Shown here: in pieces, positions 24,260 to 45,268 of the stretch
How positions within the stretch are numbered: position 1 is the first letter of the stretch
Layout: every line of letters begins with the position of its first letter
Assembly: GCA_003211695.1 (NCBI GenBank)
Contig: QCSA01000001.1
Coordinates: forward strand, 35,116 to 99,115
DNA from: Pelagibacteraceae bacterium AG-464-P07
GTDB taxonomy: Bacteria; Pseudomonadota; Alphaproteobacteria; Pelagibacterales; Pelagibacteraceae
DNA length: 64,000 nt
Direction of reading: 5' to 3'
Notes under the pieces: generated by a model
What the model saw: the letters and a program-made list of their open reading frames with translations, nothing else
Told to the model about the DNA's origin: nothing
Databases searched by the model: none
Position numbers and translations under genes: made by a program

Positions 24260-24670
24260 TTAACCTTTTTTATAAGCCTTCTTTAAATCGACTAAAGGAT
24301 GTCGTGGAGACATTTGAAACTTAATTAATAATTCTCGAGCAATCATATCTCTTGATTGTTGATCGTTTGGTAGTTTGATTTTTTTTGGAATAGTAACCCA
24401 GCCATTAGCATTTCTACAAAAAACAGCGGGTCGACCTTCTTCGTATCCCATGTGAACATCTTCTAGCCAATTCAAATCATCCCACCCCATAGCTTCTACA
24501 TATTTTTTTAGAAAGGGAGTAATTTTTTTATAATCAGGCAACATGTTAACATCATATCTGTACCCGATATGTTGACCGATCATTTTTTCTCTAGCAGTCT
24601 CTTTTGAGGTTCCTAATTTTATTTTTTTTTCTTTTTTATTTTTAATTTTTTTCTTATTTTTCTTAGCCAT
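24260..24670 (-). CDS. Hypothetical protein with Lys-rich N-terminus, embedded in the mgs-amt operon
   Basis: 136-aa ORF 9 nt downstream of the mgsC-like stop. It begins MAKKNKKKIKNKKEKKIK followed by a globular region. No family recognised. Confidence 0.5.
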   Translation of the reverse strand: MAKKNKKKIKNKKEKKIKLGTSKETAREKMIGQHIGYRYDVNMLPDYKKITPFLKKYVEAMGWDDLNWLEDVHMGYEEGRPAVFCRNANGWVTIPKKIKLPNDQQSRDMIARELLIKFQMSPRHPLVDLKKAYKKG

Positions 24671-26940: not shown

Positions 26941-27869
26941 ACTTTTACTTCGCCATCAAATGGATCATAAGTATCAATCTCTTGTGGTAGAATTGATCTA
27001 ATAGCTATCTCTTCTGATCCCATTGCAACTAAATTATCCGATTCATAAAGTACTAATGGTTTTGCAGCCATAGTATCTTTTGCCATCCCTAAAGAATCTT
27101 TTGTTGCAACAAAATAAGTAAATACACCATCAAGTCCTTTTAAAGAGTCTTTCATTCCTTCTTCTAGAGTTGCGTCATTTCTCATTTTTTCTGCTAAGTA
27201 TACGGCGATAAGTTCAGAGTCGCATTCAGACATGAATCTCATACCTTTGTTTTCCAGTGCTCTTCTATTGTTCCAATAATTTGTTAATTGACCGTTATGA
27301 ACTACAGATACGTCGCTAAAAGGATAACCCCAAAAAGGATGAGCTGATTTAATATCAACACCAGACTCAGTTGCCATTCTAGCATGACCAATTCCATGAG
27401 TGCCGGTAATTTTGTCTAAATTGTATCTATCGCAAACTTCCTTTGCGTCACCAATATCTTTTATTAACTCTAAAGATTTTCCAATAGAAAGAATTTCAGT
27501 CATTTCTGCACTTTCAATTTTTTTAGAAAATTTCATTAAATCTTTATCGTATTTAATTTCATATCTAAAAGAATAAGGTGTAAGTCTTTCCTCTTTAACA
27601 ATTATAGCGCCTAAATCTGATAAATTTTTATCAACTATTTTTTTTCTTTCATCATAAACAGAGGCTTCTTCATTTACAGCATTACTACCTTCTCCAACGT
27701 TTTCACCAACTTTAAATCTCATGATAAAATTTTGGCCATCATTATCAGCATAAAGAGCGTATCCTGTTGAGTCAGGACCTCTATGTTTTAATGCTTGGAG
27801 CATACTCTGAAGCTCAGAACCTATATTTACTGATTTATCTTTATGAATTAGCCCTGCAATTCCACACAT
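26928..27869 (-). CDS. mgsA: N-methylglutamate synthase subunit A-like (class II glutamine amidotransferase, GlxB-like)
   Basis: MCGIAG N-terminal nucleophile Cys, so the ATG at 27869 (preceded by AAGGAAA) is preferred over the ORF-track start at 27902. Confidence 0.75.
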   Translation of the reverse strand: MCGIAGLIHKDKSVNIGSELQSMLQALKHRGPDSTGYALYADNDGQNFIMRFKVGENVGEGSNAVNEEASVYDERKKIVDKNLSDLGAIIVKEERLTPYSFRYEIKYDKDLMKFSKKIESAEMTEILSIGKSLELIKDIGDAKEVCDRYNLDKITGTHGIGHARMATESGVDIKSAHPFWGYPFSDVSVVHNGQLTNYWNNRRALENKGMRFMSECDSELIAVYLAEKMRNDATLEEGMKDSLKGLDGVFTYFVATKDSLGMAKDTMAAKPLVLYESDNLVAMGSEEIAIRSILPQEIDTYDPFDGEVKVWQI

Positions 27870-27889
27870 AATAATATTTCCTTTTTTGA

Positions 27890-29362
27890 CTACGGCAAAC
27901 AATCCAAATAGGTATCAAGATCCCATTGAGTTGTTGCTCCTAAAAATTTTTCCCATTCATCGTTTTTATACCAATGAAATACTTTATACATTTCATCCGG
28001 CATAGCTGATTGAATAACTTTATCTTCTTTTAAACGATCCAAGGCTTCACCAAGGCTTAATGGTAATTTTTTAACATCTTTACCTGCTTTTTGAGCTTCG
28101 TAGATGTTTCTTGATTCAGGTTTTCCAGGATCAATATTATTAGTCAGGCCATCGTCAAAAGATTTTAATAATGCTGAGCCCATTAAATAAGGGTTATGCA
28201 TCGAGTCAACTGAACGGTATTCAAATCTTCCTGGAGCAGAAACTCTTAGTCCGCAAGTTCTATTTTGATAACCCCAGTCTGCATAAACTGGTGCCCAGAA
28301 ACCTTGATCCCATAAACGTCTATAAGAGTTTACAGTTGATGAGCCAATAGCAGTTAAAGCACCCAAGTGTTTCATAACACCGCCAATACATTTTAAACCA
28401 ATTTTTCCTGGCAGCTGAACATCTTTTGTATCTGGCATAAATGTGTTTTCTCCACCTTGAACATATGTGAAAACTTCTTCTACACCTGGCAATGTTTTAT
28501 GATGTAATTTATTTACTTTATCACTTCCACCTGTCCATAGTGACATGTTTGTATGACATCCGCTGGCCGAAACTCCCATAAAAGGTTTTGTCATGAAGCA
28601 TGCAATTATTCCATGTTCTCTAGCAACTTGTGCGCATATTTGTCTATATGTTGAAAGTCTATCTGCGTTTCTTAATACATCATCAAACATCCAATTCAAT
28701 TCTAACTGACCAGGCGCATCTTCATGATCTCCTTGAATCATGTCTAATCCCATTGCGTTTGAGTATTCAATCACTTTCATAAATACTGGTCTTAAGGATT
28801 CAAATTGGTCAATGTGATAACAATATGGTTTCGAAAAACCTTTACCAGTTGGCGTACCATCTTGATTTCTAGTTAACCACATCATTTCTGGTTCAGTTCC
28901 AATTCTTAATTTCAAACCTTTGTGTTTCTTTGTAAATTCTTCGTGATGTATTCTTAAATTACCTCTACAATCAGATGTTAAATGTCCACCTGGATTATCT
29001 CTTTCTTCTCTATTTCTAAAACAAGTACAATAAACTCTTCCAACTCTTTTATCCCAAGGCACTTGAACAAAAGTTTCTGGATCAGGAATTCCAACTAATT
29101 CTTTAGCTTCTGGTCCATAGCCAATATAATTTTTATGACGATCTACAAATAAGTTTGCCGTCGATCCGTAAACTAATTGAAAACCTTTTTCAGCAATCCT
29201 TTCCCAGTGGTCAGCAGGGATCCCTTTACCGACAACTCTTCCTGTTACTGATATAAATTGAAAATAAACATATGTAATTCCTAATTCGTCAATTTTTTTT
29301 CTTACATCTTTTACTATTTTATCACGTCCAGGTCTGCTAACGTGTTTCTCAAGATCTGTCAT
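27890..29362 (-). CDS. Glutamine-synthetase-family ligase, gamma-glutamylmethylamide synthetase candidate
   Basis: GS catalytic-domain motifs (EPEMMW, GDHEDAPGQLELNW, FMTKPF...ASGCHTNMSLW, NSYRRL). The ATG at 29362 is preceded by GAGGGAG. It lies directly upstream of mgsABC-like genes. Confidence 0.75.
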   Translation of the reverse strand: MTDLEKHVSRPGRDKIVKDVRKKIDELGITYVYFQFISVTGRVVGKGIPADHWERIAEKGFQLVYGSTANLFVDRHKNYIGYGPEAKELVGIPDPETFVQVPWDKRVGRVYCTCFRNREERDNPGGHLTSDCRGNLRIHHEEFTKKHKGLKLRIGTEPEMMWLTRNQDGTPTGKGFSKPYCYHIDQFESLRPVFMKVIEYSNAMGLDMIQGDHEDAPGQLELNWMFDDVLRNADRLSTYRQICAQVAREHGIIACFMTKPFMGVSASGCHTNMSLWTGGSDKVNKLHHKTLPGVEEVFTYVQGGENTFMPDTKDVQLPGKIGLKCIGGVMKHLGALTAIGSSTVNSYRRLWDQGFWAPVYADWGYQNRTCGLRVSAPGRFEYRSVDSMHNPYLMGSALLKSFDDGLTNNIDPGKPESRNIYEAQKAGKDVKKLPLSLGEALDRLKEDKVIQSAMPDEMYKVFHWYKNDEWEKFLGATTQWDLDTYLDCLP

Positions 29363-29469
29363 ATAACCTATCTCCCTCAAAGATTAATATTTTGAACTTA
29401 ACTCTCTTAAATTTAGAAATATGTTAACTGAAAAATAAATACTCGTCCATATAGAAACTTTAATTTTAT

Positions 29470-30807
29470 CTAAGCCCAAGGAAACGGACTATGAGAAGTA
29501 GGATGTAATTGACCATTCGCGTAACGAGTGAATCTAAATGGTTTTAATAGTTCACTTTCTTTTTCAAGTATTTCTTCAGCAACAAGTTTTCCAACTCCTA
29601 ACATTTTATAACCATGGTTTGAGTCAGCGATAATGTAAACATTTTCACAAAATCGATCGAAGATTGGAAAATTATCTGGAGTAAAACAACCTAAACCACC
29701 CGATGGTACTCTATTATATAAATTTGATTTTCCTTCAAATCTTTTTTGGCAATGAGCTAGCGCGGAAGCCCACATATTGGCAAATTTTTCATCTGTTTGA
29801 TATTCCTTTGATGCTATTCCATAAGGATCAACATTTACTTGATCTAATGGTTTTTCAACTTTATACGGAGCAGTACCACCTTGGACACCAAGTGACTCAA
29901 CAATATCGGGCTTATAATAAATTCCCCACATTTTGTCTGTAATTAGGGATCCATCTACATCAGAATATAATGGTTCATTGCTATCAACATGAATAAGTGG
30001 AGGCATATCACCATTATCAGTTTTCAAAAAATCCATACCAACTTTCATTACCCCCTCTTGTAAAAACCAATATTTCCACATTGGTATGTCTTTATTAATT
30101 TCGCCAGTACCATTTTTTATATTTACTTTTTTTGGCAGTTCTAACATTTTCCATAAATTATTTATCCAAGGTCCAACAGCAATAATTACCTGTTCACATT
30201 CTATGATACCTTTTGATGTTTCCGCACCTGTTATTGCGTTACTATTACTTTCTTTTTTAAATCCAATGATTTCAACTCCTGTAATAATTTTTGCACCAGC
30301 CGCTTGTGCTTTTTTTGCTACTCCTTGTATTGCAATTTTACTTTTTGAATATCCTCCTCTTTTTTCATGTAAAATATTTGTAATTCCCTTTGCTTGCCAG
30401 TCGCTAAAAATTTTTTTCATGTAGACTGTACATTGTTTTTCACCTTCTATGAAATCTGATTCATATCCAATAGCTTTTTGTTGTTGATATACAGACTGCA
30501 TATCTTTTTTCATACTTTCAGGACTAATTGCCATAAAACCTACTGAATCATACGCAAAAGTTTTTGGGTCACTTTCCCAAACTTTAACACTATGTGCCAT
30601 TAGTTCTCTCATAGCAGGTTGAAAATAGTTGTTTCTAACAACTCCACAAGCGGTACCGCTAGCACCAGCTGCGATATCTGTTTTGTCTATGACAAGGACA
30701 TCGTCTTCTTTAAGACTGCCATTTTTATTTTTAAGTTTTTCTGCAAGATGCCAAGCGGTGCTCAAACCATGCACTCCGGCACCAATAATTAAGTATTTTG
30801 ATTTCAC
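29470..30807 (-). CDS. DAO-family FAD-dependent oxidoreductase, paralog 1 (first gene of the gmaS-mgs-amt operon)
   Basis: IIGAGVHGLSTAWHLA FAD fold; 445 aa; GTG start. About two-thirds identical (by eye) to ORF 38367-39716. Confidence 0.8.
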   Translation of the reverse strand: MKSKYLIIGAGVHGLSTAWHLAEKLKNKNGSLKEDDVLVIDKTDIAAGASGTACGVVRNNYFQPAMRELMAHSVKVWESDPKTFAYDSVGFMAISPESMKKDMQSVYQQQKAIGYESDFIEGEKQCTVYMKKIFSDWQAKGITNILHEKRGGYSKSKIAIQGVAKKAQAAGAKIITGVEIIGFKKESNSNAITGAETSKGIIECEQVIIAVGPWINNLWKMLELPKKVNIKNGTGEINKDIPMWKYWFLQEGVMKVGMDFLKTDNGDMPPLIHVDSNEPLYSDVDGSLITDKMWGIYYKPDIVESLGVQGGTAPYKVEKPLDQVNVDPYGIASKEYQTDEKFANMWASALAHCQKRFEGKSNLYNRVPSGGLGCFTPDNFPIFDRFCENVYIIADSNHGYKMLGVGKLVAEEILEKESELLKPFRFTRYANGQLHPTSHSPFPWA

Positions 30808-30812
30808 GGTCC

Positions 30813-30890
30813 GATGATGAAAAAGAATTTGAGAGAATAAAATAATTTTTTTTATTACTAAAAAATATATATAAAAAAAATAAGTGAAAT
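30813..30890 (-). promoter_or_regulatory. Duplicated 78-nt leader/promoter element, copy A (upstream of flavoprotein paralog 1)
   Basis: Ungapped 63/78 match (hand count) to 37833-37910. It begins 5 nt from the start codon. Confidence 0.6.
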
Positions 30891-30925
30891 AGACTTATTT
30901 ATGTATAGCTTGATGCGATTGATTT

Positions 30926-32101
30926 ATGCCAAAATCAAATACATATAAAGCTGGGCGGCATTTTTTGCAGGTTCCTGGACCAACAAATCTTCCCGATCGA
31001 ATTCTACGTGCAATGAATCGTCCCGCAATAGACCATCGTGGTCCTCAATTTGCTGAATTATCAAAAAGAATCTTAGAGAGAATTAAATTAATATTTAAAT
31101 CAACAGACCCAGTCATAATTTGGCCTAGCTCAGGTACGGGTGCTATGGAAGCTTCAATAGTTAACACTTTAAATGAGGGAGATAAAGTTTTAATGTTTGA
31201 AACTGGACACTTTGCTACTGAATGGTGTCAAGCTGCACGAAGATATAATGTAAATGTTGATTTTGTTCCAGGAGATTGGAGGCATGGGGCAGATCCAAAA
31301 ATAGTCGAACAAAAATTACTTGCCGATAAAAAACATGAAATTAAAGCTGTATTAGTTACTCATAATGAAACTTCTACAGGGATAGCGAGTAGAGTAGAGG
31401 AAATAAGAAATGCAATCGATAACGCAAAACACCCAGCATTATTTATGGTGGATACGATTTCTTCTTTAGGTTCGTTTAATTATGATCACAAGAAATGGAA
31501 AGTAGATGTTTCTGTGGGAGGATCACAGAAAGGTCTAATGTTACCCCCAGGACTGTCTTTTAATGCAGTTAGTCATAAAGCACTGGAGGCATATAAAAAT
31601 TCAAAACTTCCAAAATCATATTGGCATTGGGGTCAAATGCTAGAAAATAATAAAAACGGTTTTTATCCTTATACGCCTGCTGTGAATATTTTGTATGGAT
31701 TAAATGAATCAATAAATATGTTGATGGAAGAAGGCCTTGACAATGTCTTTGCCAGGCATGCCAGGCATGCAGAAGCAACTAGAATAGCAGTTCAGGCTTG
31801 GGGATTAGAAATACTTGCTAAAAATCCTGAAGAACGTTCAAATTCAATAACAGCAATTTTGATTCCAGACGGACATGATTCAGATAATTTACGAAAAATA
31901 ATTTACGATAATTATGACATGTCTCTAGGAACTGGACTTGCCAAAGTGAAGGGGAAAGTTTTTAGGATTGGTCATGTTGGAGACTTTAATGATTTGATGC
32001 TTGCAGGTACTCTTGCTGGGGTAGAAATGGGTTTAAAACAATCAGGTATACCTTTCAAGCCAGGAGGTATAATGGCTGCTCTAGATTTTCTTTCAAAATA
32101 A
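30926..32101 (+). CDS. sga: Serine-glyoxylate aminotransferase (class V, AGXT family)
   Basis: Close resemblance to Methylobacterium SgaA as recalled: VPGPTN.PDR, HEIKAV.V.HNETSTG, GGSQKGLMLPPGL, GKVFRIGHVGD. Confidence 0.85.
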   Translation: MPKSNTYKAGRHFLQVPGPTNLPDRILRAMNRPAIDHRGPQFAELSKRILERIKLIFKSTDPVIIWPSSGTGAMEASIVNTLNEGDKVLMFETGHFATEWCQAARRYNVNVDFVPGDWRHGADPKIVEQKLLADKKHEIKAVLVTHNETSTGIASRVEEIRNAIDNAKHPALFMVDTISSLGSFNYDHKKWKVDVSVGGSQKGLMLPPGLSFNAVSHKALEAYKNSKLPKSYWHWGQMLENNKNGFYPYTPAVNILYGLNESINMLMEEGLDNVFARHARHAEATRIAVQAWGLEILAKNPEERSNSITAILIPDGHDSDNLRKIIYDNYDMSLGTGLAKVKGKVFRIGHVGDFNDLMLAGTLAGVEMGLKQSGIPFKPGGIMAALDFLSK

Positions 32102-32113
32102 TTATTGCAGCAG

Positions 32114-34834
32114 CTATCCTGTATTTTTCATTGCAGCAGCTATTCCTGCTATAGTTACCATCATAGCGTCCATTAATAATTTTTTATCTGCATTTCTTAA
32201 ATTAGTTGCTTTTAGTTTTTTCATTACATCGGCTTGCAATAAATTTAATGTTTCGGCATATATATTTCTAATTCTTATTGATTCTCTATATGATTTGCGT
32301 TGTTCTAAAATATATTTTGGTATCAAAGTTTTATTTATATGAATTAATGATAACAATTGTTTTCTAAGTTTATTACCGATATTTTGCAATTCTTTGTCAC
32401 CAAGGCATTCTTCATAAAATTGAATTACCCGTAGATCGGTTTTTGTTAACACCATATCTAACATATCCATCATTGCATAAAAAAAATGCCACTTATTTAA
32501 CATATCTTTTAGTATAACTTTATTTTTTCCTATTTTAGCTAATTCTAAACCCTCAAAAGTTCCTAACCAAGCGGGTAAAATAAAACGAATTTGAGTCCAA
32601 GAAAACACCCAAGGTATCGCTCGCAAGTTTTTTATTTCATCACCTTTTTTTCTCTTAGTTGGCCTTGAACCAATTGATAATTGGTCCAAAATTTTCTGAG
32701 GAGTGATTGTTCTGTAATATCTCAAAAAATTAGGATCATGTATGCGACTACGATACGCTGTGCTGGCAGCTTCACTCATATCATTCATCAATCCACGCCA
32801 GCTTTTTTTAGGTCGAGTAGGAGGTATCAAGGTCGCTTCTAATACCGAGGATATATAGGTACCAAGCGTGTGTTCAGCTAATGATTCTGTACTATATTTT
32901 TGTTGAATGATTTCTCCTTGTTCAGTTACGCGCGTTCTTCCATTAACAGTACCTGGCGGTTGGGATAATAATGCTGAATAAATAGGTCCGCCCCCTCGAC
33001 CAACTGATCCACCGCGACCGTGAAACAAAGTTAATTTTACTTTATGTTTATCCGAAACCGATTGTAAATTTTCCTGAGCTTTATATTGAGCCCAACTCGC
33101 TGCAAGCTTTCCAGCATCTTTGCTTGAATCAGAGTAGCCGATCATTACTTCTTGATAACATTTAAATTTTTTTAAATACCAGGAAATATTGTACAAAGAT
33201 TTTATTATTTGATGAGAGTTTTGAAGATCAGATAAAGTTTCAAATAATGGAACAACACGCAAATAGGTTTTTATTCCTGATTCTTTTTGAAGAAACACCA
33301 CAGCCAAAATATCAGAAACATTGGAAGCCATAGAAATAATGTAAGCTCCTAAACATTCTTGTGGTAATTTTGCTATCATTTGAAAAGTAGCCCACACTTC
33401 TTTATCTTCTTTATCCAATACTATATTTTTAGGAATTAAAGAGCGTTTGGATTTGAAATGTTTAGATAAAAAAGAGATTTTTTCTTCTTCTGACCATTCC
33501 TGATAATTGCCTAAGCCCAAACGTAGACAAATATTTTTTAGTAGCTTTCCATGTCGACTAGCCTCTTGACGAATGTCTAATTTTGCTAAATTTAAACCAA
33601 AACAATGTGCTCGTCTCAACAAATCTAACACAGAACCATTAGCAATAGATTCGCACTTAACATCGCAAAGAGAATTGTAAACTATATTTAACGGTTGAAT
33701 GACTTCGTTAATTGATCGAACTAAATATGGTTCGTTTAAAACTTTTCTATTATTTAAATGTAGCTCAATCAATCTTTGGGTATTTTTCATTTTATCCCGA
33801 ATGGGTCTTAAAAAAACTCTATATGGCTCTGAGCTATTACCAACTTTATCTAGAAGGGTTTTGGAACATTCGTGAAGTGACAAATTTCGTATTAATTTCG
33901 TAAGTTCTTTTTCATATAAATTAGCTGCCATCCATCTAGACAACAAAACAACTTCTTCGGTAATTTTTGATGTTACGCTAGAATTACCGTCACGATCTCC
34001 GCCCATCCAAGACCCGAATGTAATTGGAGAAAAATTAATTGGTAAACGTTTACCTACATAATTTAGTATAGCTTGATCAAAATAAGAACAAATTTTTGGT
34101 AACGCATTCCATAAACTATCCTCAATAATTGCCAATCCCCACTTTGCCTCATCTATGGGCGTTGGTTTAGATCGTTTTAACTCATCAGTTTTCCATATGG
34201 ATGTAATTTCTTCATGGAGACTTTCTTCCAATAATTTTGCTTCACGATCAACATTTTTTTTTGTAAAAATTCTTAAATTAACAAATCTTTCTAAAATGTT
34301 ATTTATATGTTTAAATTTATGTATAAGCGTTCTTCTTTTAACTTCCGTTGGATGTGCAGTTAAAACTAATTCGATTTTTAATTTTTTAACGGTTTGAAAA
34401 AATTTCTTTTTGGAAATAGATTTATTTTTTATTAGACGATCTATAGCTTCATCTAAAATAACAAGTTCATTTGTTCCTTGGGCTTTGCGAACGTCAAGAT
34501 TATGTATTTTGTGAACACTATAAAGCGATTCTGCTAAATTAGAAAAATTTAAAAATTGACTAAAAGACCGAGATATTACTAATGACTCTCGATAACTTAA
34601 CTTACGAATATTTGATTTTAATTGACGAAACTTTTTTGTCTCATTCAATCTTATTTTTTTCTTGCTCTTTTTGCCTCTGCTTGTCTTTGATAAAAGTCTA
34701 ATTTTTTCAATTTTATTAAAAAAAGAAATACCCTCTTGTTCTTTAATGACTAGTCCTAATATTTTTCCCAGTAAATGAACAATTTTAGAAAGTTTAAAAA
34801 TTGCTAGGTTTTTGTATTTAGTTTTTTTTACCAT
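32114..34834 (-). CDS. ppc: Phosphoenolpyruvate carboxylase
   Basis: VLTAHPTE, GSWMGGDRDGN, GYSDSSKDAG, FHGRGGSVGRGGGP and the C-terminal ...MKNTG. Confidence 0.93.
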   Translation of the reverse strand: MVKKTKYKNLAIFKLSKIVHLLGKILGLVIKEQEGISFFNKIEKIRLLSKTSRGKKSKKKIRLNETKKFRQLKSNIRKLSYRESLVISRSFSQFLNFSNLAESLYSVHKIHNLDVRKAQGTNELVILDEAIDRLIKNKSISKKKFFQTVKKLKIELVLTAHPTEVKRRTLIHKFKHINNILERFVNLRIFTKKNVDREAKLLEESLHEEITSIWKTDELKRSKPTPIDEAKWGLAIIEDSLWNALPKICSYFDQAILNYVGKRLPINFSPITFGSWMGGDRDGNSSVTSKITEEVVLLSRWMAANLYEKELTKLIRNLSLHECSKTLLDKVGNSSEPYRVFLRPIRDKMKNTQRLIELHLNNRKVLNEPYLVRSINEVIQPLNIVYNSLCDVKCESIANGSVLDLLRRAHCFGLNLAKLDIRQEASRHGKLLKNICLRLGLGNYQEWSEEEKISFLSKHFKSKRSLIPKNIVLDKEDKEVWATFQMIAKLPQECLGAYIISMASNVSDILAVVFLQKESGIKTYLRVVPLFETLSDLQNSHQIIKSLYNISWYLKKFKCYQEVMIGYSDSSKDAGKLAASWAQYKAQENLQSVSDKHKVKLTLFHGRGGSVGRGGGPIYSALLSQPPGTVNGRTRVTEQGEIIQQKYSTESLAEHTLGTYISSVLEATLIPPTRPKKSWRGLMNDMSEAASTAYRSRIHDPNFLRYYRTITPQKILDQLSIGSRPTKRKKGDEIKNLRAIPWVFSWTQIRFILPAWLGTFEGLELAKIGKNKVILKDMLNKWHFFYAMMDMLDMVLTKTDLRVIQFYEECLGDKELQNIGNKLRKQLLSLIHINKTLIPKYILEQRKSYRESIRIRNIYAETLNLLQADVMKKLKATNLRNADKKLLMDAMMVTIAGIAAAMKNTG

Positions 34835-35711
34835 TTAAAACTGATTTTACCGTCTCACCCATTACAGATGGATTTTTAGAGATTGTCACACCACATTCCT
34901 TTAAAAGTTCGACTTTTTCAACAGCACTTTCTCCATAGGCTGAAACAATCGCTCCGGCGTGACCCATTACTCTTCCGATAGGGGCTGTCAATCCAGCTAT
35001 ATAAGCTATCACTGGTTTTGACATATTTTCTTTTGCAAATTTACCTGCTGCGACTTCCTGAGGTCCTCCTATCTCACCAATCATCAATATGGCTTTGGTT
35101 TGATCGTCTTGTTCAAATTTTTCCAAAATATCTCTAAATGAACATCCATTAATTGGATCTCCTCCAATGCCAACGCTAGTTGAGATACCTATATTTAAAT
35201 TTTTCATTTGTTGTGCCGCTTCATATCCAAGTGTACCCGATCGTCCAATAACACCAACTTTGCCTTGCGTATAAATATGTCCCGGCATAATTCCTAACAG
35301 AGATTTTCCAGGACTGATAACGCCAGCACAATTCGGACCTATTAATGTCATTTTATCTTTTTTAGAATATCTCCTCATATAACGTTTAATTTTAATCATA
35401 TCATGAGAAGGAATTCCGTCGGTAATTGCTACGCATGTTTTAATTCCGGCATCCGCTGCTTCCATTGCAGAATCTGCCGCAAACTCTGGTGGAACAAACA
35501 GAATAGTACAAAAAGCATCTGTTTTTTTTACTGCTTCTTTTACAGTATTAAAAACTGGTAAATCTAGGTGTGTTTGTCCTCCTTTACCAGGAGTTACTCC
35601 ACCAACAATATTAGTACCATATTTAATCATCTCTTTTGCATGGAAAGAGCCAAACTTACCAGTAAAACCTTGAACTATTATTTTTGTTTTCTTATCAATT
35701 AATATAGACAT
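34818..35711 (-). CDS. mtkB: Malate-CoA ligase (malate thiokinase) alpha subunit, SucD-like
   Basis: CoA-ligase alpha motifs (VQGFTGKFGSFH, GPNCAGVISPG, GHAGAIV). It shares one base (TAATG) with mtkA and its context is mcl/ppc. Confidence 0.78.
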   Translation of the reverse strand: MSILIDKKTKIIVQGFTGKFGSFHAKEMIKYGTNIVGGVTPGKGGQTHLDLPVFNTVKEAVKKTDAFCTILFVPPEFAADSAMEAADAGIKTCVAITDGIPSHDMIKIKRYMRRYSKKDKMTLIGPNCAGVISPGKSLLGIMPGHIYTQGKVGVIGRSGTLGYEAAQQMKNLNIGISTSVGIGGDPINGCSFRDILEKFEQDDQTKAILMIGEIGGPQEVAAGKFAKENMSKPVIAYIAGLTAPIGRVMGHAGAIVSAYGESAVEKVELLKECGVTISKNPSVMGETVKSVLNGKKN

Positions 35712-36886
35712 TAATTTTTCCCCAATTCTTTAAGAGCCTTAACCGCTTTATTTGCTGCATCTTCTAAAGTTGAGGCTTCAATGTAATTTATTTTTCTTTC
35801 TTTTAAAATTTTATTGCCCTTTTCTACGTTTGTACCTGCTAAACGTATTACAAGAGGCATATTAATTTCTATTTTTTGTAAAGCTTGAACTATTCCTTCA
35901 GCAACCCAGTCGCATCTATTTATACCAGCAAAAATATTTACTAAAATAACTTTCACTTTTTCATCTTGAGAAATTAATTTAAACGCTTTAACCATTTTTT
36001 CAGGACTAGCACCTCCACCAACATCAAGAAAGTTTGCAGGTTCTCCTCCAGCTAATTTAATCATATCCATAGAAGCCATTGCTAAACCCGCTCCATTAAT
36101 TATGTTGCCGATATTACCTTCAAGACTTATGTAATTAAGTCCTCTATCTGATGCATAAACTTCGTTTAGATTTTCTTGGGCCTTATCTCTTAGTTCAGAT
36201 ATCTGACTTCTACGAAATAACGCATTGTTGTCAAAACTCATTTTACAATCGAGAGCTAAAATGTGTTCATCTTTTGATATTACTAGTGGATTAATTTCTA
36301 CCATGGTAGCATCCAATTCACTGAAGGCACGGCAACATCCCATAATTGCGTCAGCCGTTCTAGAAATAAGTTTAGGATCGATACCCAAACCAAAAGCAAT
36401 CTCTCTTGCTTGAAATCTTTGCATTCCAACGGCAACTTCTATTTTTGATCTAATTATACTTTCGGGCTTCTTTTTAGAAATTTCTTCTACACTCATACCG
36501 CCTTCTGTTGAAGCAACCACCATTATACACTCAGAAGCACGATCGAAAACTAATCCTAGATATAATTCTTTTTTAATATCCGTCACTTCTTCAATATAAA
36601 CTCTATGAACGATTTTACCTTGTGGACCTGTTTGTTTTGTAACTAATTTTTTTCCAAGTAATTTGTCAGCCGCTTGGGCAACCTCTATTTTACTATTACA
36701 AATTATAATTCCGCCCGCTTTTCCTCTTGCTCCAGAATGAATTTGGGCTTTAACAACCCATTTCGATCCACCAATTTCACGAGCTTTATATTCTGCATTT
36801 TCTGGACTATATGCAATGGCGCCACGAGGAATATTTATACCAAAACCGGAAAGTATTTTTTTTGCTTGATATTCATGAATGTCCAT
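35711..36886 (-). CDS. mtkA: Malate-CoA ligase (malate thiokinase) beta subunit, SucC-like
   Basis: MDIHEYQAKK start (the ATG at 36886 is preferred over the ORF-track start at 36955). FQAREIAFGLG, MSFDNNALFRR and NIFAGINRCDWVAEG resemble Methylobacterium MtkA rather than SucC, from memory. Confidence 0.8.
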   Translation of the reverse strand: MDIHEYQAKKILSGFGINIPRGAIAYSPENAEYKAREIGGSKWVVKAQIHSGARGKAGGIIICNSKIEVAQAADKLLGKKLVTKQTGPQGKIVHRVYIEEVTDIKKELYLGLVFDRASECIMVVASTEGGMSVEEISKKKPESIIRSKIEVAVGMQRFQAREIAFGLGIDPKLISRTADAIMGCCRAFSELDATMVEINPLVISKDEHILALDCKMSFDNNALFRRSQISELRDKAQENLNEVYASDRGLNYISLEGNIGNIINGAGLAMASMDMIKLAGGEPANFLDVGGGASPEKMVKAFKLISQDEKVKVILVNIFAGINRCDWVAEGIVQALQKIEINMPLVIRLAGTNVEKGNKILKERKINYIEASTLEDAANKAVKALKELGKN

Positions 36887-36887
36887 T

Positions 36888-37826
36888 TCACTTGCTCCCA
36901 ATAAGTTTATTAATATTAACAATATTTTCTGCCATGCGAGCTGAAGCTGCGTCAATCATTCTTCCATCTAATTGTGCTGCACCTTTTCCTTCTTTTGCGG
37001 CTTTGTCTAGTTCTTCAAGAATTTTTTTTGCTCTATTAACTTCTGCAGCCGGTGGCGAAAATACTTTATTTGCAAGATCAATTTGAGAAGGATGTATTGC
37101 CCATTTACCCTCTATACCGATTGCAGCTGCTCTTTTTGCTGATGCTACATATGCGTCAGGATCCTTAAAATCACCGAAGGGACCATCAATTGCTCTTAGC
37201 CCATAAGCTCTACACGTCATTACTAACTGTGACAAACCGTGATGCCATTGATCACCTGGGTAATCTGGGTTCAGCCCACCAATTACAACAGTTCTTGCTC
37301 TTAAGCTTGCTGCATAGTCTGCCACTCCAAAATGAAGTGCTTCTAATCGATTACTAGATTTTGCTATCTCTTTAATGTTTGACATACCTAAAGCAGTTTC
37401 AATTAAACATTCTATTCCAACTTTATTTTTAAATTTTTTTTGATTTTCAATTTGAGTTAATAGACAATCAACTGTGTAGATATCGCTGTCTGTTCCAACT
37501 TTTGGAACTAAAATAGTATCAATTTTATCACCAACCTGTTCCATTATGTCAACCACATCACGATACATATAGTGTGTATCCAAGCTGTTAATTCGAACTG
37601 AAATAGTTTTGCCTCTTTCTCTCCAATTAATTTCATTAAGCGCTTTAATTATATTTTCACGAGCTGATAGCTTATCATTTGGCGAGACAGCGTCTTCAAG
37701 ATCTAGAAAGATATAATCTGCATTTGAATTTAGAGCCTTTTCAAACATTTTTGGAGATGAACCAGGAACAGCTAATTCACTCCTTTGCAAACGCGTTCTT
37801 GCAGGATTATAATATTGATGACTCAT
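36888..37826 (-). CDS. mcl: Malyl-CoA lyase (HpcH/CitE-like)
   Basis: RSELAVPGS, IFLDLEDAV, NSLDTHYMYRDVVDI, FGVADYAAS and GKWAIHPSQIDLAN closely resemble MclA as recalled. Confidence 0.85.
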   Translation of the reverse strand: MSHQYYNPARTRLQRSELAVPGSSPKMFEKALNSNADYIFLDLEDAVSPNDKLSARENIIKALNEINWRERGKTISVRINSLDTHYMYRDVVDIMEQVGDKIDTILVPKVGTDSDIYTVDCLLTQIENQKKFKNKVGIECLIETALGMSNIKEIAKSSNRLEALHFGVADYAASLRARTVVIGGLNPDYPGDQWHHGLSQLVMTCRAYGLRAIDGPFGDFKDPDAYVASAKRAAAIGIEGKWAIHPSQIDLANKVFSPPAAEVNRAKKILEELDKAAKEGKGAAQLDGRMIDAASARMAENIVNINKLIGSK

Positions 37827-37832
37827 AATTTT

Positions 37833-37910
37833 GATGATGAAAAAAAATTGTAATAGATAAAATATTTTTTTTTAGAACTAATAAATATATATAAAAAAAA
37901 TAAGCATTAT
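37833..37910 (-). promoter_or_regulatory. Duplicated 78-nt leader/promoter element, copy B (upstream of mcl)
   Basis: Ungapped 63/78 match to 30813-30890. It begins 6 nt from the mcl ATG. Confidence 0.6.
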
Positions 37911-37931
37911 TAATGTTGATATGAAACAATA

Positions 37932-38321
37932 TTAACCGCTTAGATTTTTAAGAGTAACAAGGTAATCATTAAATTCACTAACAAATTTAATACTTGGTTT
38001 AATAAATTTTTTTCTCATATCACTTGATGTTTTTTCTAAATAAAAAAAACCCTTTTCACACGCTTCATTAATTATCAAAGCAGATTTAGGCCTTGATGTT
38101 TTAAATAATTTTGTCTTCAATTCTTCCACTGATAAGTTTTTTTTATTATAGTGAGCTGTCATGACCAACAACATCATGTGATAATGCGAAGGTGATTTTC
38201 TAAAAAAATAGTTACTGGAAGTATGAGCTTTTCTCATTTGCTGCTCCCAAAACATTAGAAGAGATTTGGTATTTTTTATCATTAAGTGAAGTGTATAATA
38301 AACGTCTAAACCCGGAAACAA
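37932..38321 (-). CDS. Possible MarR-like winged-helix regulator
   Basis: Small ORF of 116-129 aa, depending on the start. LSVEELKTKL...ALIINEACEKGFFYLEKTSSDMRKKFIKPS looks like HTH plus wing (D.R...). The assignment is by pattern only. Confidence 0.4.
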   Translation of the reverse strand: MFPGLDVYYTLHLMIKNTKSLLMFWEQQMRKAHTSSNYFFRKSPSHYHMMLLVMTAHYNKKNLSVEELKTKLFKTSRPKSALIINEACEKGFFYLEKTSSDMRKKFIKPSIKFVSEFNDYLVTLKNLSG

Positions 38322-38366
38322 TATTAATAGAGATTTTTTATGTAATTTTAGCGATGTTTAGAAGAT

Positions 38367-39716
38367 TTAGCTCCAAGGAAAGGGGCTATGAGAAGTGGGA
38401 TGCAATTGACCCTTTTCGTATCGATTAAATCTAAAAGGTTTTAATAATTCAGTTTCCTTATTTTCTAAAATTTCTTCTGCTACAAGTTCTCCAACTCCTA
38501 TCATTTTATAACCATGGTTTGAGTCAGCGATAATATAAACGTTTTCGCAAAATCGATCAAAAATAGGAAAAGAATCTGGAGTGAAACATCCTAATCCTCC
38601 AGAAGGACCTTTTTTATATACATTTATTTTTCCTTTAAATCTTTTTTGGCAATGGGCTAATGCAGAACACCACATATGTGCAAATTCGTCACCTGTTTGA
38701 TGATCTTCCGAATCTACTCCATAAGGGTCTACTTTTACATCACCAGTTGGTTTGTTGATTTTATATGGTGCAGCTCCTCCTTGAACTCCATTAAAATTAA
38801 AATCTGGCTTATAGTATATTCCCCACATTTTATCGGTTATTAAGGATCCATCTACATCTGAAAATAAATGTGCATCGCTATCGACATGAATTACCGGTGG
38901 CATTTTACCAGCATCCGTTTTTTGAAAATTTGGATCAACCCCAAGAACGCCTTCTGTCAGAAACCAATATATCCACATTGGGTAATCTTTGTGTATTTTA
39001 CCTTTTTCATCTTTGATTGAAATTTTTTTTGGAAGTTCAAGCTTATCCCATAAACCTTTGATCCATGGACCGGCCCCAACGATTACATGCTCACAATCAA
39101 TAGTACCCTTTGAAGTTACTACGCCAGTCACAGACTTACTGTTACTTCCTTTCCTAAAACCTGTGACTTTAGTGCCTGTTAAAATTCTTACTCCAAAACT
39201 TTCAGCCTTATTAGCCAATCCATAGATTGAAGCGGTGTTGTTAGCATATCCACCTTTTTTTTCATGTAAGATAGAAGTTATTCCTTTAGCCTGCCAATCA
39301 TGAAATATATTTTTCATGTATTTCGTAGAATCTTCTCTCCCTTCAATAAATTCAGATTCATAACCAATAGCTTTTTGTTGTTCGTAGATGCTTGAAATAT
39401 CTTTATGCATGCTTTCGGGACTTATTTGCATGTAACCAACAGGATGATAGTTAAAATTTTTTGGATCACTTTCCCAAATTTTTACACTGTGCATCATGAG
39501 TTCTCTCATGGCGGGTTGAAAGTAATTGTTTCTTACTACACCACAGGCGATACCACTTGCACCAGATGCAATTCCTCCTTTATCGATAACTACAATATCG
39601 TTGTTAATACCATTTCCATTCTTTTTCTTAAGTTTTTCTGCAAGATGCCAAGCGGTACTTAAACCATGTATTCCAGCTCCAATAACAACAAATCTTGCCT
39701 TCTTTGGAAACGCCAT
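38367..39716 (-). CDS. DAO-family FAD-dependent oxidoreductase, paralog 2 (translationally coupled to tdm)
   Basis: VIGAGIHGLSTAWHLA FAD fold; 449 aa. The ATG lies 2 nt after the tdm stop codon. Paralog of 29470-30807. Confidence 0.8.
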   Translation of the reverse strand: MAFPKKARFVVIGAGIHGLSTAWHLAEKLKKKNGNGINNDIVVIDKGGIASGASGIACGVVRNNYFQPAMRELMMHSVKIWESDPKNFNYHPVGYMQISPESMHKDISSIYEQQKAIGYESEFIEGREDSTKYMKNIFHDWQAKGITSILHEKKGGYANNTASIYGLANKAESFGVRILTGTKVTGFRKGSNSKSVTGVVTSKGTIDCEHVIVGAGPWIKGLWDKLELPKKISIKDEKGKIHKDYPMWIYWFLTEGVLGVDPNFQKTDAGKMPPVIHVDSDAHLFSDVDGSLITDKMWGIYYKPDFNFNGVQGGAAPYKINKPTGDVKVDPYGVDSEDHQTGDEFAHMWCSALAHCQKRFKGKINVYKKGPSGGLGCFTPDSFPIFDRFCENVYIIADSNHGYKMIGVGELVAEEILENKETELLKPFRFNRYEKGQLHPTSHSPFPWS

Positions 39717-39717: not shown

Positions 39718-42057
39718 TTAAGATTTTACTCTTAGTTTTTCAGGATCGTAAAAAGGAAATTTAACTACTTTTGCTCCAATTCTTTTTTGATGACCGTCAA
39801 TTTTACCAACCTCTACATTTGTACCTATGTCAGAATATTTAATATCCATTCTACAAAGTGCAATATTTTTGTTTAGAGTAGGGGATATCATTCCACTAGT
39901 TATTACACCAACAGTAGCTCTTCCCACGTGTACACCATCTCCATTACTAGCTTGTTCTTTACCAATTAATTCTAAACCAACAAGTTTTTTTTGTGGAGAT
40001 TCTTTTCTTTTTATCAAAGTATCTTTACCTACAAAATCATCTTCTTTAGTTTTCAGCGCGACAGAAAATCCAATGCCAGCTTCAAAGGGATCTGTTTGAT
40101 CGTTAAATTCGTATCCATAAAATATAAGTCCAGCTTCAATTCTTACCATGTCCAAACCTTCTAAACCCATTGGAGTAATGCCTAAATCTTTTCCTGAATC
40201 CCAAACTTTATCCCAAATTTTAGAAGCATCATTGGGATGACACCAAATTTCAAAACCAAGTTCACCTGTATAACCTGTTCTTGATACAATAATCGGTGTA
40301 CCTATATGATCATCAATTCTAGCAATAGAAAACCTAAACCATTGAAGTTCATTTATCTTTGCTTGTGCAGGTGGAGTCCAAACAAATTTTTCTAAAATTT
40401 TTCTACTATTTGGTCCCTGAACTGAAATATTATGAATTTGATCAGTTGAAGATTTTACCCAAACTTTATATTTTTTTTTCTTAGCTAATTCTCTAAGCCA
40501 TGTACCGCCATATTCTTGGCCACCAATCCAACGGAAATTATCTTTACCTAGACGAAAAATTGTTCCATCGTCGATCATGCAGCCGTTGTCATAGCACATG
40601 GCTGAATAACTAACTTGTCCTATTGAAAGTTTTTTTACATTTCTTGTAAGAGCATACTGCATTAGATTTTCAGAGTCTGGACCCATAATTTCAAATTTTC
40701 TTAGGGGAGATAAATCAATTGCGATAGCCTTTTCTCTGCACGCTGTATATTCGTTGATGGTTCCATAATTTGTATAGTTATTGGCTAACCAATAACCATT
40801 ATAATCAATAAAATTTCTGGTAAGCTTGGATGTTTTTTTGTGGAATCCAGTTTCTTTTGTTAATTTTGGTTCTGAATCTTCTTTCATTCTAAACGCTATA
40901 GCTTTCGAGTATTTTTGTTCTTTAGGATAAGTTCTAACAAATATATCGGTTGGATTCCATCCATTTGCTGGATCAACATCGCATGGGCAAGCAGAAGAAG
41001 CGCACACTAAATCTTTTGTTGCTCTAAATAAAACATAATCTCCTGGTCTAGACCACGGCTCATCAAAAGATGCAATATTTAGTTGATTAATACTTGTATT
41101 AAAAAAAAGATTAATAGCAGTCCAACCTTTTCTTGATTTCACTTCATATTTTTTTAAAGCTTTATTAAAATTTTCTGAGCAATTTATATGACCAAAGTAA
41201 CCCATATCTTCATAGTATTTCGCAGTACATGCATAATTAAAAGTATCATGTCTACCAACAGTGTCTCTGACAACTTCAATCATTGGGTCATGGTCCATAT
41301 CAAAAAATTTTGAAAATAAACCAGGCACTGGATAAGCAGCTCCCATAAATGTACGAGTGGCCGTAGCATCAATTATACTTTCAATTCTTTTATCAAGTTT
41401 TGCTTTGTCAAAAGCTAAAAAATCTGAACACTGTCTTCCCGCAGGATCTATGATTTGAATGTATTCTCCTGCTTTTACTTCATAAGTATAAGCAGTACGT
41501 CTTTTAATAAGTTTTTCGTTTAAAGGGTCACTTAAAGGCTCTGGCAAAACAAATTGCTCTCCATTATTATTATCATCAAATTTAGATTTATTTAAAAGAA
41601 CAGTTAAATCAGTTGGAGGATTTTGATTATGAATGTTCATAGCTTCGCCAGGAGCAGCAAGCATAACTGTGCATTTATCTTTAGATTTTAAAATTATTTT
41701 TTCATCTATTTGACAATCTTTATCAAATATTGTTGAGGATTTTGCCTTAGTAAGATCAAATTTTTTTCTTTTAAATAATTTTGTAATTTTTTCATCATTT
41801 AAGATTGTTTTTTTTGAAAAACTAGCATCCGAGTTTTCTTTTAAATTTAATAATGATAGATCACATTTACCTTTAGAATTAAAAACAACAACTTCACATG
41901 TTTGTTTGCCTTCATCGTTAATTATTTCTAATTTATCTTCTGGCAAAACTTCTATAACTGATAAACCTCCACCTCTAACAAAATACCTTTCAACTCCTGG
42001 TGGTAAAGTCCTTAAGCCAGGATTTCTTATATCTAAACTAGTTGATATGTTTTCCAT
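39718..42057 (-). CDS. tdm: Trimethylamine N-oxide demethylase (DUF1989 domain fused to GcvT-like aminomethyltransferase domain)
   Basis: About 779 aa. The N-terminal DUF1989-like half and C-terminal GcvT fold (TGYTGELGFEIW, RIEAGL) match the architecture described for Tdm. Divergent from tmoX. ATG at 42057. Confidence 0.85.
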   Translation of the reverse strand: MENISTSLDIRNPGLRTLPPGVERYFVRGGGLSVIEVLPEDKLEIINDEGKQTCEVVVFNSKGKCDLSLLNLKENSDASFSKKTILNDEKITKLFKRKKFDLTKAKSSTIFDKDCQIDEKIILKSKDKCTVMLAAPGEAMNIHNQNPPTDLTVLLNKSKFDDNNNGEQFVLPEPLSDPLNEKLIKRRTAYTYEVKAGEYIQIIDPAGRQCSDFLAFDKAKLDKRIESIIDATATRTFMGAAYPVPGLFSKFFDMDHDPMIEVVRDTVGRHDTFNYACTAKYYEDMGYFGHINCSENFNKALKKYEVKSRKGWTAINLFFNTSINQLNIASFDEPWSRPGDYVLFRATKDLVCASSACPCDVDPANGWNPTDIFVRTYPKEQKYSKAIAFRMKEDSEPKLTKETGFHKKTSKLTRNFIDYNGYWLANNYTNYGTINEYTACREKAIAIDLSPLRKFEIMGPDSENLMQYALTRNVKKLSIGQVSYSAMCYDNGCMIDDGTIFRLGKDNFRWIGGQEYGGTWLRELAKKKKYKVWVKSSTDQIHNISVQGPNSRKILEKFVWTPPAQAKINELQWFRFSIARIDDHIGTPIIVSRTGYTGELGFEIWCHPNDASKIWDKVWDSGKDLGITPMGLEGLDMVRIEAGLIFYGYEFNDQTDPFEAGIGFSVALKTKEDDFVGKDTLIKRKESPQKKLVGLELIGKEQASNGDGVHVGRATVGVITSGMISPTLNKNIALCRMDIKYSDIGTNVEVGKIDGHQKRIGAKVVKFPFYDPEKLRVKS

Positions 42058-42139
42058 GTGAAACAAATAGTATATCAGAGATTAATTATGTGCAATTGGC
42101 ATTGACTCGCAAAAAATGAGCACATAGACTTTGGTTAAG

Positions 42140-42153: not shown

Positions 42154-42175
42154 ATTAATTATGGGAGAAAAATAC

Positions 42176-45265: not shown

Positions 45266-45268
45266 TTT

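Follow-up and report, generated by a model that had tools for sequence, protein, structure and literature searches.

Two old SAR11_1304-family flavoproteins beside tdm and a glutamine synthetase-like module in a Pelagibacteraceae genome: candidate demethylases of N-methylated amino acids

Introduction

SAR11 bacteria exceed all other marine heterotrophs in abundance, and they carry tmm, tdm and gmaS together with no known enzyme degrading dimethylamine (DMA). The dmmDABC genes for DMA monooxygenase have been reported missing from SAR11 (Lidbury et al., 2017; PMC5520151), as had been noted in an earlier reading of the locus studied here (hereafter, the original prediction), and from the missing enzyme it has been argued that DMA builds up, escapes to the atmosphere and seeds aerosols (PMC5520151). 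Which protein could carry out such a step is the question raised by a 64,000-nucleotide (nt) stretch of the genome of Pelagibacteraceae bacterium AG-464-P07 (contig QCSA01000001.1, positions 35,116 to 99,115; “the window” in what follows, with a G+C content of ~30-35%). It encodes two paralogous flavoproteins of the Pfam DAO family: DAO-2, situated behind tdm (trimethylamine N-oxide, TMAO, demethylase), and DAO-1, after which a minus-strand row of genes codes for a glutamine synthetase-like (GS-like) ligase (GSL), proteins with the GATase-II, GXGXG and flavin mononucleotide (FMN) domains of glutamate synthase (Mgs'ABC), a 136-amino acid (aa) open reading frame (ORF) and an Amt-family transporter (Table 1). 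The original prediction regarded both flavoproteins as orphans, acting either on DMA or as single-subunit N-methylglutamate oxidases. Our analysis favors the second option, or the oxidation of another N-methyl amino acid, and finds the first one less supported.

Proteins of this type have been discussed before. SAR11_1304 of ‘Candidatus Pelagibacter ubique’ HTCC1062 was described as a “monomeric sarcosine oxidase” beside SAR11_1303, the gene now named tdm (Sun et al., 2011; PMC3160333). A later study regarded its function as uncertain and took it up together with the lack of a DMA monooxygenase (Smith et al., 2013; PMC3870248). A possible DMA role of the SAR11_1304 family is thus an already raised idea, and the hypothesis was not new when it was put forward for this locus; on the other hand, no paper giving the family a function was found in the literature. 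What we add is the duplication in a genome of SAR11 Ic-like type, the wide distribution of the family, its conserved partnership with a module containing the GS-like gene and an Fe-S motif, and a residue-level argument for an amino acid substrate.

We consider it possible, with a probability of about 0.4, that both copies are stand-alone N-methyl-amino-acid demethylases, most likely acting on N-methylglutamate. The SAR11_1304 family is a good candidate, the best placed in that gene row, for the missing marine methylamine step. The family is not specific to SAR11, and its partner module is conflated by annotation pipelines with gmaS/mgsABC or with glutamine/glutamate synthase, GSL and the true GmaS being confusable in gene surveys. 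If a second methylamine pathway or a DMA pathway did operate through these genes, surveys of the canonical gmaS, mgs, mgd and dmm genes would mis-estimate the turnover of methylated amines in marine and other habitats. As small single-subunit proteins, these flavoproteins make the long-standing question of marine DMA turnover directly testable by heterologous expression.

Two Anciently Diverged Copies of a Widespread Family

DAO-1 and DAO-2 are paralogs, estimated by eye in the original prediction as two-thirds identical; BLASTP aligns them end to end with 69% identity and 83% positives, and their nucleotide identity is 73%. The FAD (flavin adenine dinucleotide) fold and the C-terminal tail that they had been said to share were both recovered. 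The N-terminal ~220 residues of each copy match Pfam DAO (PF01266; 116 bits for DAO-1 and 128 for DAO-2, against a cutoff of 27.9), the match being confined to positions 2-217 of the 353 of the profile, and both proteins end in GQLHPTSHSPFPW[A/S], a tail that is invariant across the family members examined (82/82).

The SAR11_1304 family is defined here as proteins of ~445 aa with >60% identity, the motifs CGVVRNNY and DSNHGYKM, and a C-terminal LHPxSxSPFPW; both window copies belong to it. Far from being orphans, they have relatives in at least 8000 clusters at 90% identity in a word-indexed search, and at least 600 matching stretches, of which at least 588 were confirmed as relatives, came from a pattern scan covering a single genome for each species. 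Among the carriers are Pelagibacterales, Kiloniellales, Dongiaceae, Rhodospirillales, Hyphomicrobiales (for instance Methyloceanibacter), Burkholderiaceae and many Gammaproteobacteria, together with one metagenome-assembled genome (MAG) of Acidimicrobiia and one of Eremiobacterota; among the matches listed, their proteins share 65-72% identity with DAO-2. Clustering at 50% identity brings the entire family into a single cluster, and only a few full-length relatives are found at 38-49% identity, such as the distant P0123 (45%). A plasmid collection contained no family homolog at E <= 1e-40.

The copies contain a 33-nt exact match (29602-29634 = 38502-38534), correctly described in the original prediction, where it was taken to suggest recent duplication or gene conversion. 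That interpretation is contradicted by a synonymous divergence (dS) of 1.32, near saturation, by the placement of the copies in separate sub-lineages and by the marginal character of the run itself, which encodes the most conserved peptide of the protein (IIADSNHGYKM) and is not present in 80 other loci. Runs of at least 33 nt arose in 2.7-4.6% of codon-level permutations (P ~0.03-0.05), so the match is at best weak evidence for a micro-conversion tract. A neighbor-joining tree of the window copies and 80 species-level homologs places DAO-2 with L001, L002 and L003, which are also its nearest relatives (91, 85 and 82% identity, respectively), and DAO-1 with L018 (79%), a SAR11 single-cell genome in which a DAO-1-type gene is the only copy. 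DAO-1 is closer still to a metagenome cluster (P0270, 91%; a 90% cluster with 361 members), and a look-up of its exact sequence returned no record. The copies are therefore anciently diverged paralogs from different SAR11 sub-lineages.

Across 178 positions conserved in at least 95% of the family, DAO-1 deviates at 14, the most of any member, and DAO-2 at two. A decaying DAO-1 was also considered and is ruled out by its intact ORF, its own environmental clade and a ratio of non-synonymous to synonymous divergence (dN/dS) of 0.15 between the copies; because of this ratio, DAO-1 is regarded as being under purifying selection.

Fold Class and Candidate Active Site

When DAO-2 alone was used as query, the best solved matches were SoxB beta subunits (E 8e-18; phmmer alignment to 2GAG_B), and when the family profile was used, the best match was the proline-dehydrogenase beta subunit of P. 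horikoshii (E 4e-22). L-amino-acid deaminase, dimethylglycine oxidase (DMGO), glycine oxidase, dimethylglycine dehydrogenase (DMGDH) and monomeric sarcosine oxidase (MSOX) were the next solved relatives. The same proteins were retrieved with an AlphaFold model, which is of moderate quality (pLDDT 66.7, pTM 0.71), and the fold search confirmed the two-domain fold class. Both copies fall outside every curated characterized family, whose cutoffs they miss by a wide distance: 80.5 and 95.0 bits vs 529.45 for TIGR01373 (SoxB/MgdA), 47.9 and 57.1 vs 479.65 for TIGR01377 (MSOX), and 62.1 and 63.5 vs 257 for NF008425 (N-methyltryptophan oxidase, MTOX).

The likeness to SoxB/MgdA (2GAG_B, 1VRQ_B), which are the best sequence matches and among the best fold matches, extends to a GxGxHG dinucleotide motif, an RxNY motif and a C-terminal G-x-K motif, and some pipelines name family members “methylglutamate dehydrogenase subunit A”. 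Nonetheless, the alignment is limited to the N-terminal ~215 residues and the last ~65, and the SAR11_1304 family differs by its conserved C-terminal tail and by mid-protein segments that are inserted relative to MSOX. Opposite His173 of 2GAG_B, the established site of covalent FMN attachment in the SoxB beta subunit, the copy aligned has Asn159/Asn160: across the family the first of these positions is occupied by N, F or K and the second by N in 80/82 members, with one S and one Q, and His occurs at neither. Neither copy adjoins a soxD, soxA or soxG gene, nor does either of them give any GCV_T match, the GcvT domain that is fused in enzymes of the DMGDH, sarcosine dehydrogenase (SARDH) and DMGO type. 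The statement in the original prediction that a GcvT domain and partner subunits are lacking thus stands for the two copies themselves and their immediate neighbors, but not for the window at large, which does contain a soxBDAG set (53695-58811) and a DMGDH-like gene (60966-63383).

MSOX and MTOX (1EL5, 2UZZ) are single-subunit enzymes, as the SAR11_1304 proteins would be. After checking the MSOX sequence against PDB 3BHF/1EL5, a profile alignment between the family and MSOX reached 95.7% probability, and paired R62 with Arg52, K404 with Lys348, H401 with His345, and C377 with Cys315, the flavinylated residue. R62, K404 and H401 are invariant in 82/82 members, and Cys377 is found in 66/82, including all SAR11 members. 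By alignment, the family thus holds the Cys of the 8-alpha-S-cysteinyl-FAD position together with the Arg/Lys pair that would bind a carboxylate. On the other hand, identity to MSOX/MTOX is ~20%, the SAR11_1304 proteins are ~60 residues longer, and the Cys is replaced in 16/82. Furthermore, the oxygen-activating Lys265 and the catalytic His269 of MSOX align with an invariant Gly313 and Pro317, in a stretch of lower alignment confidence; this difference may point to a dehydrogenase instead of an oxidase. Judged by these alignments, the family appears as a distinct hybrid clade of the MSOX/SoxB/DMGDH superfamily, with a SoxB-like N terminus and MSOX-like positions for the flavin tether and the carboxylate.

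The enzymes known to catalyze the DMA reaction are of a different kind. Dmm is a monooxygenase of several subunits with haem, flavin and Fe-S centers, whereas DMA dehydrogenase contains FMN and a 4Fe-4S cluster; both belong to protein families unrelated to the flavoproteins described here, and no sequence feature ties the DAO-family proteins to either of them.

Genomic Context and the GS-Like/Mgs' Module

Context was compared across 80 species-level loci, mapping the window proteins by tblastn, clustering all ORFs and naming the recurrent neighbor families. In the dominant row, the DAO gene precedes the GS-like gene, Mgs'A, Mgs'B, Mgs'C and the gene for the 136-aa protein, and amt often comes next. 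Direct succession of DAO gene and GS-like gene, the latter downstream, is seen in 23 of 26 evaluable SAR11 loci and in ~30 of 48 non-SAR11 ones, the non-SAR11 loci spanning Alpha-, Beta- and Gammaproteobacteria and the Eremiobacterota MAG, and frequently presenting a divergent GntR-family regulator. The linkage with tdm noted in the original prediction does hold within SAR11 (tdm at <=10 kb in 24/28 loci), but is found in only 6/52 of the others. The family-wide linkage is hence that with the GS-like/Mgs' module, and the one with tdm does not extend beyond SAR11 and some marine relatives.

Typical SAR11 Ia genomes carry a single DAO copy in the order tmoX | tdm, small ORF, DAO, GS-like, Mgs'ABC, 136-aa gene, amt, gmaS. 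This is the arrangement of HTCC1062, where SAR11_1304, also a family member (the window copies share 65-69% identity with SAR11 Ia orthologs), is flanked by tdm (SAR11_1303) on one side and the GS-like gene (SAR11_1305) on the other, with a small ORF between tdm and the DAO gene. The window differs in that two old paralogs are separated by a malate-CoA-ligase/phosphoenolpyruvate (PEP) carboxylase (ppc) cassette and in that DAO-2 abuts the tdm stop. The ATG of DAO-2 sits 1 nt past the TAA of tdm; the adjacency itself had been rightly pointed out, with a gap of 2 nt, and the gene passes the tdm model (Table 1). Unsplit orders, with tdm abutting the DAO gene and the GS-like gene following, are present in L002 and L018, and the lyase/malate-CoA-ligase cassette is found beside a single DAO gene in L042, L056 and a metagenome contig (L082), with ppc also in L042. 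Closest to the window is L003, from SCGC AAA288-N07, a single-cell genome of SAR11 whose Mgs'ABC proteins are 99% identical.

DAO-1 is indeed the first gene of its row, with an 89-nt spacer before the GS-like gene, but the row is not the gmaS/mgs operon for which it had been taken: GSL and Mgs' are paralogs of the canonical proteins, and the true gmaS is located at 20955-22280. Against the solved GmaS 7CQL, the product of the latter scores 556 bits (and 328 bits against the glutamate-methylamine ligase 9QUR), vs 166 bits for GSL, by which the candidate identity of GSL with GmaS is ruled out. GSL is 28% identical to the true GmaS of the window and has a ~25-residue insertion. HTCC1062 likewise has both, the GS-like gene being SAR11_1305 and the true GmaS SAR11_1316, and its canonical glxBCD genes (SAR11_1313-1315) are the best match to the N-methylglutamate synthase of Methyloversatilis.

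The DAO-linked synthase trio also departs from the canonical one. All 41 DAO-linked Mgs'C proteins (41/41) carry CYHCHTGRCPVG (CxxCxxxxCPxG) at the 3Fe-4S site of GltB, unlike the canonical GlxD/MgsC of L054 (20065-21324), which has none of these motif cysteines. Among the SAR11 loci with a flank reaching past amt, L054 is the only one in which a canonical trio was found there, in the stretch from amt to the locus end; the proteins of this trio share 34-51% identity with those linked to the DAO gene. The cysteine motif suggests that the Mgs' set could trade electrons with another protein, whereas N-methylglutamate synthase is redox-neutral. As for the 136-aa protein, it has a lysine-rich N terminus, spans Alpha-, Beta- and Gammaproteobacteria and the Eremiobacterota MAG, gave no Pfam/NCBIfam match, and may be an unrecognized subunit of the module. 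The flavoprotein belongs with this paralogous module, distinct from canonical gmaS/mgsABC.

Two further observations concern loci outside SAR11. A conserved ~190-aa ORF (family f21, 18 loci, including L016, L017, L021-L024, L029, L031, L034 and L035) accompanies the module on the opposite strand after the 136-aa gene; its product gave no NCBIfam/Pfam match. Several gammaproteobacterial loci in which the flavoprotein occurs without the GS-like module (L015, L021, L026, L030, L039, L041) contain genes for choline dehydrogenase, a PatB-type C-S lyase, GbdR-like AraC regulators and a RACo-like corrinoid activator, as well as a second DAO-family gene, a JmjC-domain gene and, downstream, an ArsR/ArsI/Acr3-like arsenic set.

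Proposed Function and Competing Explanations

In the explanation we favor, the flavoprotein would oxidize the N-CH3 bond of an N-methylated amino acid, with an FAD that in SAR11 members is possibly tethered through Cys377, and hydrolysis of the resulting imine would release the primary amino acid and formaldehyde, the latter entering the folate-linked one-carbon (C1) pathway encoded nearby. The substrate would be N-methylglutamate, or another N-alkylglutamate, made by Amt, GSL, Mgs'ABC and the 136-aa protein acting as a module, and the whole would constitute a second, self-contained glutamate-mediated methylamine route, parallel to GmaS/MgsABC/MgdABCD. An N-methyl amino acid coming from the module is the simplest fit because the operon linkage spans phyla and because the putative carboxylate binders are invariant. 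The C1 context is compatible with such a role, as fhs, soxBDAG, bhmT, a DMGDH-like gene and malate-CoA ligase/ppc are all present in the window, and so is the detection of the SAR11_1304 protein only under nitrogen limitation (PMC3870248), which fits an enzyme turning N-methyl nitrogen into usable amino nitrogen. Regarding the arrangement of the window, the ancestral SAR11 order may have been tdm - DAO - GS-like - Mgs'ABC - 136-aa gene - amt - gmaS, and a cassette with lyase-like, malate-CoA ligase, PEP carboxylase and aminotransferase genes would have split this row in the present genome, each half keeping its own flavoprotein copy, from two old SAR11 sub-lineages. Were this so, the tdm/DAO-2 junction would be an inherited order, and not proof of a Tdm-specific partnership.

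Several observations weigh against this explanation. The soxBDAG/mgdABCD type is the accepted N-methylglutamate dehydrogenase type, and the co-occurrence of such sets makes a second N-methylglutamate oxidizer look redundant. A soxBDAG-type set is clustered with DAO-GSL-Mgs' in at least seven non-SAR11 loci (soxB 687 bits, TIGR01373), stands beside the DAO gene without the GSL module in six other loci (two of them Pelagibacterales), and is present inside the window; this last finding is one that the original prediction itself had named as damaging, and it weakens the need for the flavoprotein as an N-methylglutamate oxidase. For the same reason, the role of the flavoprotein as a simple replacement of MgdABCD, which we also considered, is weakened. 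Around one third of the non-SAR11 loci carry the flavoprotein without the GS-like module, and in Gammaproteobacteria its neighbors include genes for choline dehydrogenase, for a GbdR-like regulator and for further quaternary-amine functions. The synthesis of N-methylglutamate by Mgs' is itself conjectural, the GltB-like cysteine motif setting Mgs'C apart from canonical MgsC, and the predicted model, sufficient for the fold class, is insufficient for pocket analysis. The argument built on R62 and K404 depends on the identification of Arg52 and Lys348 as the residues binding the substrate carboxylate in MSOX, as established in structural work on that enzyme. Finally, under nitrogen limitation HTCC1062 showed the flavoprotein up, but SAR11_1305 and SAR11_1308 down.

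This last pattern, a protein detected only under nitrogen limitation (PMC3870248) and uncoupled from its falling downstream neighbors, would fit a sarcosine or general N-methyl-amino-acid oxidase scavenging nitrogen and C1 units, the neighborhoods then being no more specific than a general “methylated nitrogen” island. The conserved MSOX-type carboxylate binders and the Cys at the flavinylation position would suit such an enzyme, as would the gammaproteobacterial choline dehydrogenase and GbdR-like regulators, and the soxBDAG and DMGDH-like genes adjoining the flavoprotein in several Alphaproteobacteria. We nevertheless consider it unlikely: SAR11 already has SARDH/DMGDH-type genes and soxBDAG sets (PMC3160333, and the window), the MSOX model scores 48-57 bits vs 480, MSOX Lys265 aligns with an invariant Gly, and the operon linkage with GSL-Mgs' in ~55/74 evaluable loci would be left unexplained. 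Somewhat less likely again is direct oxidation of DMA by an oxidase or dehydrogenase, via N-methylmethanimine to methylamine and formaldehyde, filling the dmmDABC gap. The ancestral gene order tdm-DAO-GSL-Mgs' would then track the sequence TMAO > DMA > methylamine (MMA) > gamma-glutamyl-MMA > N-methylglutamate; the DAO gene lies between tdm and the methylamine genes in 24/28 SAR11 loci, and in the window, L002 and L018 it abuts the tdm stop. L013 and L044 have it between tdm and soxBDAG, the place that dmm occupies in Ruegeria, between tdm and mgdABCD (PMC13390433), and no DUF3445/dmm-like gene was seen among the annotated neighbors (±10 kb) of tdm-containing loci or the annotated window ORFs. 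A DMA enzyme would also account for a flavoprotein co-occurring with soxBDAG instead of replacing it, and dmmDABC is reported missing in all SAR11, where tmm, tdm and gmaS are ubiquitous (PMC5520151). Against it, DMA has no carboxylate, and the Arg/Lys pair aligned with that of MSOX is invariant; all close solved relatives use amino acids; there is no evidence of DMA oxidation by SAR11 (PMC5520151); and outside SAR11 the linkage with tdm is weak, yet the protein remains 65-72% identical, which argues for one substrate not tied to TMAO.

The carboxylate binders and the co-occurrence with soxBDAG would both be explained by a glutamate-mediated variant, in which GSL would gamma-glutamylate DMA, the Fe-S-bearing Mgs'ABC together with the 136-aa protein would transfer it onto the glutamate skeleton to give N,N-dimethylglutamate, and the SAR11_1304-type flavoprotein would take off the first methyl and a SoxBDAG/Mgd-type enzyme the second. 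We rate this route as improbable; if real, it would also explain why GSL and a true GmaS stand in one row next to tdm, and SAR11 would pass the reported DMA bottleneck without dmmDABC, direct DMA oxidation being the simpler variant with the same ecological consequence. The least probable of the possibilities considered, which we regard as very doubtful, makes the flavoprotein a redox partner of Mgs': electrons would flow from the reduced flavin to the Mgs'C cluster and on to FMN, driving a glutamate synthase (GOGAT)-like reductive amination with the net reaction methylamine + 2-oxoglutarate > glutamate + formaldehyde, which would make it a variant of the route that assimilates nitrogen. It would give a purpose to the CxxCxxxxCPxG motif at the GltB 3Fe-4S place (41/41 DAO-linked Mgs'C, zero in the GlxD of L054) and to the extreme C-terminal tail, whose invariance could be that of a docking motif, and the missing oxygen-site Lys of MSOX would agree with an acceptor-dependent dehydrogenase. 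But the flavoprotein occurs without Mgs' in ~1/3 of the non-SAR11 loci, the protein levels in HTCC1062 move oppositely, and both the flavoprotein-Mgs' interaction and cluster binding by the cysteines are putative. The sequence data establish the age of the two copies, the selection on them, the gene order, the conserved residues and the class of fold; substrate, electron acceptor and covalent attachment of the flavin are proposals. Taken together, demethylation of a module-derived N-methyl amino acid continues to be the explanation we prefer.

Neighborhood of the Flavoprotein Genes in the Window

The features of the window are collected in Table 1. On the far side of tdm, the TmoX-like binding protein has orthologs 76-87% identical that adjoin tdm in SAR11 loci. 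The small ORF next to DAO-2, found in SAR11 after tdm or after the DAO gene, gave no Pfam/NCBIfam match; that it codes for a regulator is a guess.

Table 1. Position of the flavoprotein genes, their module and other features of the window.
Feature	Coordinates	Strand	Remarks
DAO-2	38367-39716	-	449-aa SAR11_1304-family flavoprotein, conserved-type copy, intact ORF
DAO-1	29470-30807	-	445 aa, GTG start, divergent-type copy, heads the GS-like/Mgs' operon
GS-like ligase (GSL, SAR11_1305 type)	27890-29380	-	496 aa; Pfam Gln-synt_C; TIGR03105 295 bits vs 470
Mgs'ABC, split glutamate-synthase-like trio	24680-27902	-	Pfam
Mgs' GATase-II subunit	26928-27902	-	
Mgs' GXGXG subunit	26086-26940	-	
Mgs'C, FMN-domain subunit	24680-26086	-	CxxCxxxxCPxG cysteine motif
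136-aa protein	24260-24670	-	Always after Mgs'C; 40 loci, 67-99% identity
Amt-family transporter (SAR11_1310 type)	22750-24129	-	TIGR00836 169 bits, below cutoff
Canonical GmaS (GlnT type III)	20955-22280	-	441 aa; TIGR03105 610 bits, above cutoff
tdm, TMAO demethylase	39718-42066	-	NCBIfam NF053776 1151 bits vs 1100; Pfam DUF1989, GCV_T, GCV_T_C
OpuAC/ProX-type substrate-binding protein, TmoX-like	42161-43120	+	Weak ProX match; divergent from tdm
ABC (ATP-binding cassette) ATPase and permease genes	44228-47428		After the TmoX-like gene
Small ORF (~101-129 aa)	37932-38321	-	21 SAR11 loci, 68-83% identity
Upstream block, copy 1	37833-37904	-	~72 nt, AT-rich; directly 5' of the malyl-CoA-lyase-like gene
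Upstream block, copy 2	30813-30884	-	Directly 5' of DAO-1; the intergenic region is shared with the divergent aminotransferase gene
Cassette between the DAO copies	30926-37826	mixed	
Class-V aminotransferase, serine/aspartate-glyoxylate type	30926-32101	+	BhcA-like match below cutoff
PEP carboxylase (ppc)	32114-34834	-	NCBIfam 937 bits, above cutoff
Malate-CoA ligase alpha and beta (mtkAB type)	34818-36955	-	Beta 635 bits, above cutoff
CitE/malyl-CoA-lyase-like	36888-37826	-	CitE-like match below cutoff
Formate-tetrahydrofolate ligase (fhs)	51912-53603	-	Precedes the sox block
soxB, gap fitting soxD, soxA, soxG	53695-58811	+	soxB 690 and soxA 1326 bits, above cutoff; soxG 91 bits
DMGDH/SARDH-like flavoprotein	60966-63383	+	805 aa; GcvT, TMAO-demethylase and soxA C-terminal models over residues 467-804

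Promoter and terminator scans in this AT-rich DNA gave counts equal to those of shuffles, and Rfam returned no riboswitch or known RNA at 20-44 kb (E <= 0.1). A duplicated upstream block does connect two of the rows: its 21-nt core, TTTTTATATATATTTNTTAGT, occurs twice in the window vs 0.02 times expected, and once in L003, upstream of the DAO gene on the opposite strand. The block is probably a shared promoter or operator, by which the DAO-1 and lyase-ligase-ppc rows would be co-regulated.

The genes of the cassette itself are serine-cycle-like and lie inside the methylamine island of this genome, and the cassette recurs in L003, L019, L042, L056 and L082; SAR11 Ia has been described as lacking C1 assimilation pathways (PMC3160333). 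A second C1 block on the plus strand (53695-63383) comprises the sox set, a betaine-homocysteine-methyltransferase-like gene (bhmT) and the DMGDH-like gene; its soxB (53695-54951) is a genuine one at 690 bits, and the set is 14 kb away from the flavoprotein gene region.

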